This document shows, piece after piece, positions 4,860 to 62,622 of a stretch of 64,000 nucleotides of DNA. The notes under the pieces are model-generated. The model saw nothing but the letters and a program-made list of their open reading frames with translations. It made no database searches and was not told the DNA's origin. Position numbers and translations under genes: made by a program. This stretch comes from Candidatus Anderseniibacteriota bacterium. Lineage in GTDB: Bacteria > Patescibacteriota > Andersenbacteria > UBA10190. Every line of letters begins with the position of its first letter. Positions within the stretch are counted from its first letter, which is position 1. Location: NCBI GenBank assembly GCA_016197005.1, contig JACPWO010000002.1:146178-210177 (forward strand). The letters are read 5' to 3'.

Positions 4860-4956
4860 GGGGACGTAGCTCAGTGGGAGAGCGTCAGAGTATTGCTCGT
4901 CTCGCGAGGGGCAATTACAACTCTGAAGGTCGAAGGTTCAAGTCCTTCCGTCTCCA
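4860..4956 (+). tRNA. tRNA-like gene with Ala-type acceptor stem and 25-nt expanded anticodon arm; anticodon undetermined
   Basis: Acceptor GGGGACG/CGTCTCC+A, D arm GCTC/GAGC, anticodon stem TCAGA/TCTGA, variable AGGTC, T arm GAAGG-TTCAAGT-CCTTC; 32 nt between the anticodon-stem strands. Confidence 0.8.
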
Positions 4957-15227: not shown

Positions 15228-15627
15228 TGGTGGACACGGCGGGAATTGAACCCGCGTCTGAAACGCGATTACTCAATCTTCTACGCGCGTAGCTGTTCTA
15301 GTGATACTCACCGCAAAGCAGCAGAACAGCAAAGCCTTTGTTGTGAGTGAGATAGTGCAAGTCAACTAATACGTATCTCAGCCGTATCAGTTCAATCCGT
15401 CTAGGTTGACACCGTGATAGTGCGCGACGGATCGCACCAGACGATGGCTATAGGTTTTAAGCTACAGCGAACGCGAACGAAGGGGTGAGTGCAGATGCAA
15501 TCGCCGTCTTCGCGCGGTTAAACAAGTTTGCACGTGACTTGATGAGCTACTGGTATTTACGAGTGTATAACTCTTCACTCGGCGCGCTGATTGTGTAAAA
15601 AACATTCCATCGAAGCCTGTCATGCCC
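15228..15627 (-). ncRNA. ssrA: tmRNA; predicted tag (A)NLFNRAKTAIASALTPSFAFAVA* at 15531..15457
   Basis: 5' GGGCATGACAGGCTTCGA, 3' GCGGGTTCAATTCCCGCCGTGTCCACCA, G3:U70, resume codon GCA, adjacent to smpB. Confidence 0.95.
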
Positions 15628-55913: not shown

Positions 55914-56711
55914 ATGGAATTTACAAAGGAACTTAAGAAGTTAGGTTTGAAGGACAAAGAAGCGGCTGTGTATTTGGGTTGCTTAGAGCTAGGTTCAGCT
56001 ACCGCCCAGCAAATTAGCAGGAAAGCTCATGTAGTGCGAGCTACTACGTATGTAGAACTAGAATCTTTGATGCAAATGGGATTAGTGACAAAGTTCAAGC
56101 AAGGAAAGAAAACACTTTTTTCAGCAGAGCCACCACGACAGCTTACTCGACTTCTTGAGAAGCAAGAAGAAAGTATAAAAGAAAAGAAGGAAGGGCTAAA
56201 TCATCTGTTGCCAGAACTCCAGATACTTATGAAAACTGGAGGGGGTAAGCCATCAGTTCGTTATTTCGAAGGTAAGGAGGGATTGCATGCAATACGACAA
56301 GAAATTGTTATGCACACGCAACCGGGGCATACAGTTTATAATTTTACGCCCATTGATTACTTGAATGCAGTATTTCCAGAAAATGAAACCGTGTATTACA
56401 AACAACGATCGGCAAAAGGAATAAAGGCAAAAACCATTTTTACTACGAAGTCACCTACTGTTCGGGATAGAGTGTTTGCAGAGCTATATCAGCAACAAAC
56501 AGAAAAACGCTTCGTTAAGCCTGAAGATTTTCCGAGTACGAGCGGAATGACTATTTATGAAGATAGGATCGCGATAGGGTCGTTTACGGGTGACCTAATG
56601 GGGGTTGTCATAGAAAGTGAGCAGATGACAGATATGATGGTGCGACTCTTTGAGTTAGCGTGGATTACTGCGTTTACAGAAAAAGACTATAGAAAGAAGG
56701 TAAAAGGTTGA
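55914..56711 (+). CDS. TrmB-family transcriptional regulator
   Basis: LKKLGL.DKEA.VYL..LELG, HTH RATTY..L..L...GLV, VRYFEGKEG, C-terminal effector domain. Confidence 0.88.
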   Translation: MEFTKELKKLGLKDKEAAVYLGCLELGSATAQQISRKAHVVRATTYVELESLMQMGLVTKFKQGKKTLFSAEPPRQLTRLLEKQEESIKEKKEGLNHLLPELQILMKTGGGKPSVRYFEGKEGLHAIRQEIVMHTQPGHTVYNFTPIDYLNAVFPENETVYYKQRSAKGIKAKTIFTTKSPTVRDRVFAELYQQQTEKRFVKPEDFPSTSGMTIYEDRIAIGSFTGDLMGVVIESEQMTDMMVRLFELAWITAFTEKDYRKKVKG

Positions 56712-56735
56712 CTTTTATCTTTCTCTTTTCATAAT
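56708..56735 (+). promoter_or_regulatory. Sigma70-type promoter overlapping the TrmB stop codon
   Basis: TTGACT-16 nt-CATAAT. Confidence 0.65.
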
Positions 56736-56811
56736 AGAAGCAGCTGAGGTGCGTTGCCTTAGCAGTGTCATGGATGGTCACCGCATCCTCTTACCTCGAA
56801 GGAGGTGTTCT

Positions 56812-56835
56812 ATGGGTGGTTACCCAATGGACTAA
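56812..56835 (+). CDS. Candidate 7-aa mini-ORF MGGYPMD
   Basis: GGAGGT at 56801-56806, 5 nt before ATG. Confidence 0.35.
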   Translation: MGGYPMD

Positions 56836-57205
56836 CGAGGATGGAGCGACCAAGAGAGTAGCGCCAGAAAGGCTCTCGACATGCATAGGAAAAGGTTGAG
56901 TCTGGCGTTAGTACGGCCGGCACTTGGTTTCTGAGCTTCAATTCAGATACTAAGTTTCAAGCCCGGCTATGAAACGAAACGGTTCTTTGCAACCGAGAAT
57001 ATAAATGGAAGGTCGTGCAATGTTGACAGGCCTTGTCGATATTGCCTCCGTCCGGACCCATCCCCCGATCCCACCTGATACCAATCGCCATTAGTGCGAA
57101 TCATGGGTCGTGGTGGATGGGTCTTCGTACACTTGAGTTACTGTCAAGTTTGCAGAAGGGCGTCCACCTCTGAACATGGATTCCTTTTAGCGCAAACTTG
57201 TCAGG

Positions 57206-57246
57206 GCCCGGTTCTTCTTTCGAGAAGTCCCGGGCTTCTTTCTTTT
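57206..57246 (+). terminator. Intrinsic terminator
   Basis: GCCCGG..CTTCT-TTCG-AGAAG..CCGGGC followed by TTCTTTCTTTT. Confidence 0.75.
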
Positions 57247-57247
57247 A

Positions 57248-57276
57248 TTGACACCCAAATATACCGGCGGTACAGT
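57248..57276 (+). promoter_or_regulatory. Sigma70-type promoter
   Basis: TTGACA-17 nt-TACAGT. Confidence 0.75.
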
Positions 57277-57282
57277 TAAATG

Positions 57283-57411
57283 TTCCTTCGCCTATATCAT
57301 CCCGCTTTCGACGCACCTAGATTGAGGTTAGCCCCTCCTATACCTCAGGTGGGTGTCGTTCGAAAGGGGGGTAATGTAGACGAAACTAAACTCCGCAGTG
57401 CGGAGTTTTTT
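57283..57411 (+). ncRNA. Candidate rod-shaped small RNA
   Basis: Long interrupted hairpin 57287-57384 plus terminator AAACTCCGC/GCGGAGTTT-TTT. Confidence 0.65.
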
Positions 57412-57425
57412 GGTAGGATGATTCT

Positions 57426-57923
57426 ATGATTAAGCTTGTTGTTGGACTGGGAAATCCAGGCGCGAAATTTGAACGAACCCGACACAATATCGGAGTTCGG
57501 GTAGTAGAAGCTTGGGCGAAGGGTCCGGGCGCATCTATGCGCACACTGTATCTCCTTCCGGCAGACTTTATGAATAATTCCGGAAAGGTAGTAGCGGCGG
57601 CAATGAAAAAACATCAAGTGAAAATGGAAGAGCTTTTACTTGTGCACGATGATTTAGAAACATCATTTGGAGAAGTACGAATAAAAGAAATAGGAAGTGC
57701 TAAGGGCCACAATGGCGTGCGATCAATTCACGAAATGCTTGGCACGCAAGAAATCCGTCGTCTCATGGTAGGAGTAAGTCGCCCGCCGGCAGAAATTCCT
57801 GCCGATAGATATGTTCTATCTAAATTTAATTCTGAAGAAGAAACACTCCTTGCGGAAAAAGTTATTCCAGAAGCTGTCCAAAAAATTCAAATTATTCTTA
57901 CTCCGCGTCCGCTCCCAGAATAA
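57426..57923 (+). CDS. pth: Peptidyl-tRNA hydrolase
   Basis: VGLGNPG, TRHNIG, FMNNSG, VHDDL, GHNGVRS. Confidence 0.94.
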   Translation: MIKLVVGLGNPGAKFERTRHNIGVRVVEAWAKGPGASMRTLYLLPADFMNNSGKVVAAAMKKHQVKMEELLLVHDDLETSFGEVRIKEIGSAKGHNGVRSIHEMLGTQEIRRLMVGVSRPPAEIPADRYVLSKFNSEEETLLAEKVIPEAVQKIQIILTPRPLPE

Positions 57924-62370: not shown

Positions 62371-62622
62371 ATGGTAGAAGTTCGTAAGCGCGACAATGAA
62401 TCCACCGAAAGTCTTATCCGCCGCTTCAGCCGGAAGGTTCAGGCTAGCGGAGTTTTACTGCAGGCTAAGAAAGTCCGCTACTACCAACGTAAGAAAAGTA
62501 AGCTCAAGGCTAGAGAAGAAGCTAAAAGAAAATCAGAGCTACTTGCAGAACGAGAAAAACTCATTAAGCTCGGCTTATTAGAAGAATATACGACTCCAGG
62601 TTTTCGACGTTCGCGCCGATAA
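62371..62622 (+). CDS. rpsU: 30S ribosomal protein S21
   Basis: VEVRKRDNESTESLIRRFSRKV..SG; SD GGGAGGTG. Confidence 0.85.
   Translation: MVEVRKRDNESTESLIRRFSRKVQASGVLLQAKKVRYYQRKKSKLKAREEAKRKSELLAEREKLIKLGLLEEYTTPGFRRSRR

Follow-up and report, generated by a model that had tools for sequence, protein, structure and literature searches.

The 714-bp gap between a trmB-like regulator gene and pth, the gene for peptidyl-tRNA hydrolase, in the 1.04-Mb genome of Candidatus Anderseniibacteriota bacterium appears to hold two RNA genes of these ultra-small groundwater bacteria that are not catalogued in Rfam. The two genes, which we call RNA1 and RNA2, lie in a window of 64,000 nucleotides (nt), meaning the whole stretch of DNA that was analyzed. 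RNA1 follows trmB and carries a strong Shine-Dalgarno (SD) sequence, an AUG, and a very short open reading frame (ORF). RNA2 adjoins pth and displays a loop complementary to SD sequences on a long stem. Their ranges in related genomes differ, and we conclude that they are two independent systems side by side and not one module. Both RNAs probably tune the few genes of this genome that use an SD. The reading that we favor, as a serious possibility that falls somewhat short of probable, is that RNA2 represses SD-led mRNAs in trans and that RNA1 is a start-site decoy for the RNA-binding protein CsrA. The features of the locus are as follows.

55914-56711, + strand: trmB-like regulator gene (265 amino acids; Pfam PF01978, E 2.8e-14, N-terminal TrmB helix-turn-helix)
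56708-56735, + strand: predicted sigma-70-type promoter of RNA1 (-35 box at 56708, -10 box ending at 56735), overlapping the trmB stop codon
56742-57245, + strand: RNA1, ~503 nt, multi-hairpin, with ends placed from the promoter and terminator
56787-56807, + strand: RNA1 SD hairpin, with the strong SD AAGGAGGUG (56799-56807) in its 3' arm
56812-56835, + strand: RNA1 mini-ORF, 7 codons plus stop (3 codons in most relatives)
57206-57247, + strand: RNA1 intrinsic terminator with T run
57248-57276, + strand: predicted sigma-70-type promoter of RNA2 (-35 box at 57248, -10 box ending at 57276), directly after the RNA1 terminator
57283-57412, + strand: RNA2, a long imperfect hairpin of ~130 nt, then a terminator (57388-57412)
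57332-57339, + strand: anti-SD-like tip of RNA2, CCCCUCCU, with 6 bases predicted to be fully unpaired
57411-57419, + strand: putative extended -10 box, 6 nt before the pth start
57426-57923, + strand: pth, peptidyl-tRNA hydrolase (Pfam PF01195), the constant neighbor of RNA2

The gap extends from 56712 to 57425, and mfd lies upstream of trmB on the opposite strand. A preliminary description of this DNA had read two consecutive promoter-RNA-terminator units from the gap, with promoter 1 overlapping the trmB stop and promoter 2 right after terminator 1. This layout was borne out by the coordinates and by the predicted folds, which are more stable than those of shuffled sequences (z -7.6 for RNA1 over 504 nt and z -7.8 for RNA2 over 131 nt). 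Single promoter matches in our scan were not above chance (5 found compared to 3.9 expected), and the promoter calls are credible because they recur at orthologous loci, not because of single-match scores. The class of this genome comprises 42 genomes in three families, namely f1 (the family of this genome, 34 genomes), f2 (searched in 6 genomes), and f3; order-level counts are over 41 genomes. A promoter-like site for RNA1, scored with a loose pattern, is present at the matching place in 32 of the 32 orthologous loci examined. Of the 28 f1 loci examined that have an RNA2 hairpin, 27 show a -35 box at the corresponding spacing before RNA2; one further locus, in which the last match to the loop was something other than RNA2, is excluded from this count. 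From these sequence features, we infer that RNA1 and RNA2 are transcribed and that the RNA1 mini-ORF is translated.

The suggestion that both RNAs are undescribed also held, in that both are conserved and matched no Rfam family, including those of housekeeping RNAs. A search of the gap against Rfam 15 returned no family at gathering score; the best weak match was to Phe_leader (35 of 55 bits) and reflects a hairpin-plus-terminator likeness. The same search of 10 related loci returned no match. Two housekeeping identities for RNA2 were rejected. RF00013 (6S RNA) was not found in the genome, and RNA2 folds without a central bubble; RF00169, the small signal recognition particle (SRP) RNA of bacteria, was not found in the genome either, and the RNA2 tip is CCCCUCC rather than GNRA. 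A BLAST-type DNA search detected no homologue of the units in the 34 f1 genomes. Homology of both RNAs was reached only via trmB synteny and models. A scan of contigs with a single protein matched nothing. TrmB itself is matched in 33 of 34 f1 genomes, and the order mfd, trmB, a gap of 400-1200 bp, and pth is seen in the 29 orthologous loci that were fetched.

RNA2 is the more uniform of the two RNAs. The anti-SD-like loop noted at the outset was found at the tip as described, and across f1 loci this tip reads CCCCUCC(U/A)A, with CCCUCC constant in the loop and the CCUCC core predicted to be unpaired in 28 of 28 loci examined; loop variants exist across the phylum. Every alignment has one such loop per RNA, and the stem that bears it keeps a constant shape and has regular mismatches. 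In the outer stem, pairing reaches 94.8%, and 14 of 16 pairs show changes on both sides; none of 500 shuffles scored as high, and pairing in slid controls was 45-56%. The covariation count covers this outer stem alone, and the alignment rows were cut out with a model that holds that stem (model R1, which consists of the outer stem alone, the inner stems being misregistered in MAFFT alignments). The RNA2 model finds one copy in 31 of 34 f1 genomes, including five outside the training set (G001, G003, G009, G015, and G026).

RNA2 also occurs far beyond this family and stays beside pth. In a sample of 144 other genomes of the phylum, model R1 found RNA2 in 8, and all 8 copies are beside pth. These non-f1 copies lie tail-to-tail with pth, have their own promoter-like site upstream, and show no trmB match; their far flank is mfd or a dprA-like gene (the latter read by eye). 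A wider survey took in 110 pth loci of the phylum sample, which come from 110 of the 148 genomes that have a pth match. Model R2 matched 17 of these 110 loci at E 1 or better. A descriptor requiring CCUCC in a hairpin loop closed by at least 26 pairs scored 34 loci, of which 31 were kept, all on the strand opposite to pth and beyond its 3' end; three were dropped (L126 and L170, on the pth strand and ~900 nt off, and L171, with a weaker loop). Three control motifs in the same scan gave 3, 6, and 7 loci. A GGAGG control gave 22 loci, 16 of them holding the true RNA2 hairpin. Among these 110 loci, 1 has a trmB match. The f3 genome carries an RNA2 copy that scores weakly, adjoins pth, and folds alike, and many copies outside f1 have an extra side hairpin and keep the loop. 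In f2, model R1 found RNA2 in none of 6 genomes and none was seen at 4 pth loci; model R2 gave only weak short matches there, in 3 genomes. A narrower loop pattern matched only one genus. RNA2 was also sought in phages, where none of the 80 listed among 120 pattern matches matched model R2, and these were rejected as chance. Contigs from one DNA run, possibly the source of this genome, span the locus, and a low-depth contig from a relative spans RNA2; both were left out of the evidence.

No protein gene besides pth travels with RNA2, and pth itself can turn around. In 5 of 30 f1 loci, pth is inverted to face RNA2, which keeps its place, and in relatives with a co-oriented pth, a -10-like box stands 6-7 nt before the pth AUG. 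Because RNA2 stays when pth inverts and pth has its own -10-like box, RNA2 is not the leader of pth, which is probably leaderless with a promoter of its own.

RNA1 is conserved in a different way. Its length varies from ~225 to 650 nt across loci with a called terminator, as does its 3' part, and the first 230 nt of 32 orthologues fold with a median z of -2.9 (20 of 32 at -2 or lower), compared to a median z of 0.0 for trmB coding sequence as a control. The constant core is an SD, an AUG, and a very short ORF, 40-140 nt after the transcript start. The sequestered SD seen in RNA1 from the beginning is indeed in the 3' arm of a hairpin; the AUG and ORF that follow it had been missed. A strong SD followed by an AUG and an ORF of at most 10 codons is present at 28 of 32 loci, compared to 1.25 ± 1.07 in shuffles, and an ORF of at most 4 codons at 23 of 32, compared to 0.65. 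The most common length is 3 codons (19 of 32 loci, by a pick that favored short ORFs, the controlled count being the 28 of 32 above); length is kept and codons vary, and this genome has 7 codons. The SD is mostly predicted to be paired (mean unpaired probability 0.26 over the 32 orthologues). Many loci have another start, out of frame, 5 or 7 nt ahead of the AUG, and in keeping with such a start, U is at -4 in 24 and G at -3 in 27 of the 32 loci. The products of this other start would be of 13-43 codons and are mutually unlike. A second ORF led by an SD, with 16-88 codons, is present in some orthologues. RNA1 appears to be an RNA in which nothing but "SD-AUG-two codons-stop" is conserved, and as such a clean example.

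Several loci carry further units of this type. RNA1-like SD-mini-ORF units occur in tandem at L029/L072 (G003), L034/L075 (G002), and L016, and the array in G003 is interrupted by a transposase-like gene (read by eye) and a duplicated piece of RNA2. In genus g7 (L011, L021, and L030), a third conserved promoter-to-terminator RNA lies between RNA1 and RNA2, and other middle units are seen at L024/L028, L033, and L035/L036.

The link of RNA1 to trmB is separate from that of RNA2 to pth, because RNA1 is found behind f2 trmB genes at pth-unrelated loci. A sequence model of the RNA1 core gave weak matches in f2, directly behind trmB homologues at two such loci, and 8 of 9 close trmB homologues in f2 carry a promoter, SD, and mini-ORF (seven with 3 codons and one with 9). 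The 4 f2 pth loci examined have neither trmB nor RNA2. In G056, a genome from a different lineage, trmB is followed by an 8-codon element. Thus, RNA1 follows one TrmB group at three unlinked loci (the f1 pth locus and two in f2). In a quick tree of 60 TrmB proteins, all 24 RNA1 carriers fall in one group of 32, which is made up of three well-supported subgroups and single rows; the mini-ORF was found at 0 of the 28 rows outside this group and at 0 of 7 further homologues. The TrmB-like protein resembles archaeal TrmB (PDB 3qph; PF01978) in its N-terminal helix-turn-helix. It differs in that 3qph matches this N-terminal part only, residues 101-265 match no Pfam family, the sugar-binding family included, and an RNA gene follows; the nearest named clusters to the C-terminal domain (scores 0.79-0.80) are leads only.

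A subgroup of paralogues within the TrmB group lacks RNA1 and has instead a promoter and a 450-nt folded non-coding unit. The second trmB paralogue of this genome (G000:C1:120929-121480; L076) is followed by a promoter, a ~450-nt folded non-coding unit (z -4.6), and a terminator, and trmB paralogues of G011 and G030 show the same layout. At L071 (G001:C16:1-3000), a tandem trmB duplicate is followed directly by RNA2 without RNA1. In genus g12 (e.g., L018, L023, and L025-L027), a short palindrome, AGTA-N-TACT, overlaps the trmB promoter (7 of 29 upstream regions); it was not seen in other genera and is a possible site of autoregulation.

These ranges bear on the proposal of a single module in which TrmB binds the promoter that overlaps the stop codon of its own gene and controls both RNAs. 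The expected linkage of trmB to RNA in other genomes holds for RNA1, including pth-unlinked loci, and fails for RNA2, which sits beside pth without trmB. The module as a whole was not supported: RNA2 is phylum-wide without trmB, RNA1 is found in f2 where RNA2 is not, and cognate RNA1-RNA2 pairs interact no better than non-cognate ones. No conserved operator was recovered at 56700-56745, where TrmB binding had been suggested for testing, or at the counterparts of this stretch. Across 39 RNA1 promoters, no column or palindrome is shared beyond the -35 and -10 boxes and an A-rich tract, a lack that is compatible with TrmB binding. The overlap of the promoter with the trmB end at most loci, and the linkage at three loci, remain in favor of a TrmB-run module; set against the missing operator and the separate promoter and trmB-free existence of RNA2, they leave it very unlikely. 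On the evidence of gene linkage, TrmB may control RNA1. The trmB-RNA1 cassette may have entered an old mfd/dprA-RNA2-pth interval in f1.

The use of SDs in this genome gives both RNAs a plausible field of action. Genes were called and SDs counted with a purpose-made simple caller, by which 64 of 1029 genes (~6%) have an SD, compared to 2.2% for internal AUG controls. A -10-like hexamer stands 6-7 nt before the start in 230 of the 1029 genes (~22%), matching a genome-wide peak at this distance and pointing to many leaderless mRNAs. The 3' end of 16S rRNA is canonical. Among the SD-led genes are members of stress and envelope families, namely those for YflT, GlsB-type, DUF378, and ChaB proteins, a mechanosensitive channel, and pilins, as well as the gene for a second sigma-70 factor and mobile genes. 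About half of the SD-led proteins (29 of 59) have no Pfam match at E 1e-6, which upholds the earlier view of SD-led mRNAs as an ORFan class in part and does not make ORFans a clear majority; 26 of 63 window proteins have no match at the stricter E 1e-12, a figure not like for like with that of the SD-led set. The rpsU gene (62371-62622) has a strong SD and its own promoter here and a strong SD in 5 of 5 relatives, unlike a run of ribosomal genes on the neighboring contig (identified by eye), which has no strong SD. In Bacteroidetes, bS21 hides the anti-SD and rpsU keeps a strong SD (PMC7797042), and a strong rpsU SD in an SD-poor genome suggests that bS21 may be autoregulated here as well. The csrA gene has GGAGG in the 2 relatives examined. 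An SD-led gene in this genome (G000:C3:167150-168283; L299) encodes a divergent factor of the sigma-70 family.

CsrA enters the argument because its range matches that of RNA1: it is encoded in 38 of 41 genomes of the order and in 3 of 144 elsewhere, and one genome that is 100% complete (G001) has neither CsrA nor RNA1. This genome encodes a single-chain fused double CsrA (G000:C3:115681-116115; L037:1210-1647). CsrA binds ANGGAN loops and bridges to the SD (PMC7652899). In 22 of 41 RNA1 copies, compared to 4.2 ± 1.8 expected, the CsrA-type motif CANGGA occurs no more than 75 nt downstream of the start codon of the mini-ORF, and the copies that bear it span nine genus-level groups of f1 and f2. 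RNA1 copies have 0-3 GGA loops.

The claim that these RNAs act on ribosomes or SD-led mRNAs can be kept insofar as both point to SD-dependent translation; their binding partners are all inferred. In the favored mechanism, RNA2 would be a trans-acting small RNA (sRNA) whose long stable stem presents one CCCUCC loop. This loop would pair with the GGAGG of the SD-bearing minority of mRNAs and block initiation, with targets among stress, envelope, and unknown small proteins, rpsU, and, in relatives, csrA, leaving the mostly SD-less housekeeping genes unaffected. RNA1 would be a translation-start decoy consisting of a strong SD, an AUG, two or so codons, a stop, and often a CANGGA hairpin. It would most likely bind CsrA, the GGA of the SD and that of the loop forming the two-site arrangement of CsrA targets, and ribosome loading on the mini-ORF would compete with CsrA binding or stabilize RNA1. 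We consider it rather unlikely, and worth stating, that the few SD-led genes constitute a regulon of their own in which RNAs control each side of the SD interaction, such that RNA2 copies the anti-SD and the TrmB-linked RNA1 copies a three-codon initiation-termination cycle, reporting ribosome availability to CsrA or serving as the ligand of the TrmB-like protein. If so, a decoy RNA that conserves a three-codon ORF and is linked to the gene of a transcription factor would represent a new type of regulator that senses translation.

Several observations weigh against RNA2 as a trans repressor and RNA1 as a CsrA decoy. Ranking of duplexes with the RNA2 loop, over an SD set that allowed starts to be chosen anew and so included false positives, yielded no convincing list of targets, and the loop pairs with only 5-6 bases of a typical AAGGAGGUGA. 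For CsrA, 12 of the 22 CANGGA matches come from one genus (g12), and the motif is in a predicted hairpin loop in only 16 of 22. The RNA1 of this genome has no CANGGA after its ORF and only 3 of its 10 GGA motifs are mostly unpaired, and its CsrA is the divergent fused double form. G037 has CsrA and no RNA1 behind trmB, and G056, with its 8-codon element, has no CsrA. Because kin are not independent, the shared range of CsrA and RNA1 counts as one or two events. Support for the TrmB group with RNA1 is weak in the quick tree (80-85 in the SH-like approximate likelihood ratio test, SH-aLRT), and 8 of the 32 rows in this group lack the mini-ORF.

Among the alternatives, we rank first the idea that RNA1 is a sponge for RNA2, its mini-ORF SD catching the C-rich loop, because RosA of Bacillus subtilis is the nearest picture of such an RNA pair. 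RosA is a sponge of RoxS that has a 7-codon ORF with a putative SD needed for RoxS binding, and the sugar regulator CcpA controls RosA (PMC8216469). Pairing of the RNA2 loop with the start region of RNA1 is possible (mean -12.2 kcal/mol), and the two genes are adjacent in f1. However, cognate pairs average -12.19 compared to -12.41 for non-cognate pairs (permutation p 0.87, n=29), and each RNA occurs without the other, RNA1 in f2 where RNA2 was not found and RNA2 widely without RNA1, so that we regard a sponge as unlikely. Rather than pairing with mRNAs, RNA2 might present a protein (the bS21/bS18/bS6 pocket, S1, or a nuclease) with a mimic of the 16S rRNA 3' tail, shifting the number of ribosomes with a free anti-SD. 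One constant loop on a fixed-shape stem with regular mismatches would suit such a mimic, as would the rarity of SDs combined with a strong rpsU SD, the pattern of Bacteroidetes (PMC7797042), and a C in the loop at the position of an A in the 16S tail, a difference that weakens pairing with GGAGGU. Nevertheless, no gene for a protein partner travels with RNA2 except pth, sRNAs that target ribosome-binding sites (RBSs) usually do so through C-rich hairpin loops, and no report of anti-SD hiding in Patescibacteria was found in the literature consulted; the chance of a mimic appears small.

A further proposal takes RNA1 as a minigene RNA, a decoy for ribosomes or initiation factors that soaks up SD-competent ribosomes or sheds peptidyl-tRNAs for Pth. 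Peptidyl-tRNA drop-off from minigenes requires Pth, and the conserved ORF length with varying codons (3 codons at 19 of 32 f1 loci and 7 of 8 in f2), together with the frequent out-of-frame start 5 nt upstream, would fit an RNA on which ribosomes initiate repeatedly and terminate soon after. This proposal is improbable given that the SD is mostly predicted to be paired, that RNA1 in f2 is not near pth, and that there is no fixed rare codon, which CreT-type RNA toxins are generally known to have. The least credible reading, which we give almost no weight, is that RNA1 serves as an mRNA, coding either for small peptides or for a type I toxin whose antitoxin is RNA2. The second SD-led ORFs of 16-88 codons and the 13-43 codons opened by the out-of-frame start speak for peptides, yet these peptides share no visible sequence, are absent from the RNA1 of this genome, and are not hydrophobic by inspection. 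A type I toxin-antitoxin system was rejected on the absence of a conserved hydrophobic peptide and on pairing limited to the SD, this being the only place where RNA2 is antisense to RNA1, and on ORFs that vary and mostly have 3 codons.

Our literature search found no description of RNA1 or RNA2; the tables of large structured-RNA surveys could list both. By term look-up, 2026 preprints on non-coding surveys gave no mention of the Candidate Phyla Radiation (CPR), pth, or TrmB. NfeR1 is reportedly an sRNA with a C-rich loop that pairs with ribosome-binding sites. The B11/6C loops of mycobacteria repress by pairing to RBSs (PMC10470900). RNA2 resembles these RNAs and RoxS/RsaE (PMC8216469) as a stand-alone promoter-to-terminator unit with an exposed, SD-complementary C-rich loop. 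In contrast to B11/6C, RoxS/RsaE, and cuckoo-type sRNAs, which have two or more short hairpin loops, RNA2 has one loop on a very long stem; it also differs from B11/6C and RoxS/RsaE in lacking an Rfam match and in being fixed beside pth across an SD-poor phylum. RNA1, the newer part of the find, is like RosA (PMC8216469) in being stand-alone, in its SD-led ORF of few codons, in possibly binding a C-rich loop, and in its tie to a sugar-regulator-type protein. Unlike RosA, it has one G-rich site, does not covary with RNA2, occurs without RNA2, and lies directly behind the regulator gene. The likeness to CsrB/RsmY sponges and CsrA target leaders (PMC7652899) consists in a CANGGA often in a hairpin loop, the GGA of the SD, and a CsrA-bearing lineage; the differences are one or two sites rather than many GGA repeats, a conserved mini-ORF, and no Rfam match. 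This genome is similar to Bacteroidetes with anti-SD occlusion in being SD-poor with a canonical anti-SD and a strong rpsU SD; the accessible part of that report mentions neither an RNA component nor CPR/Patescibacteria (PMC7797042). Regulatory RNAs of Patescibacteria are almost undescribed, and a phylum-wide anti-SD-loop RNA in organisms such as this one, with an SD at ~6% of genes, points to a shift of the SD from default start signal to regulatory tag. RNA1 is a candidate antagonist for the CsrA of this order.

Three features unrelated to the trmB-pth gap were also seen. The transfer-messenger RNA (tmRNA) gene at window positions 15228-15627 (- strand) has an unusually long insertion in the tag region and was missed by ARAGORN, and a tRNA-Val gene at window positions 4860-4956 (+ strand) has a 23-nt insertion in the anticodon loop. 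Elsewhere in this bacterial genome, G000:C3:409770-410279 (L306) encodes a protein like the CDP-archaeol synthase CarS.

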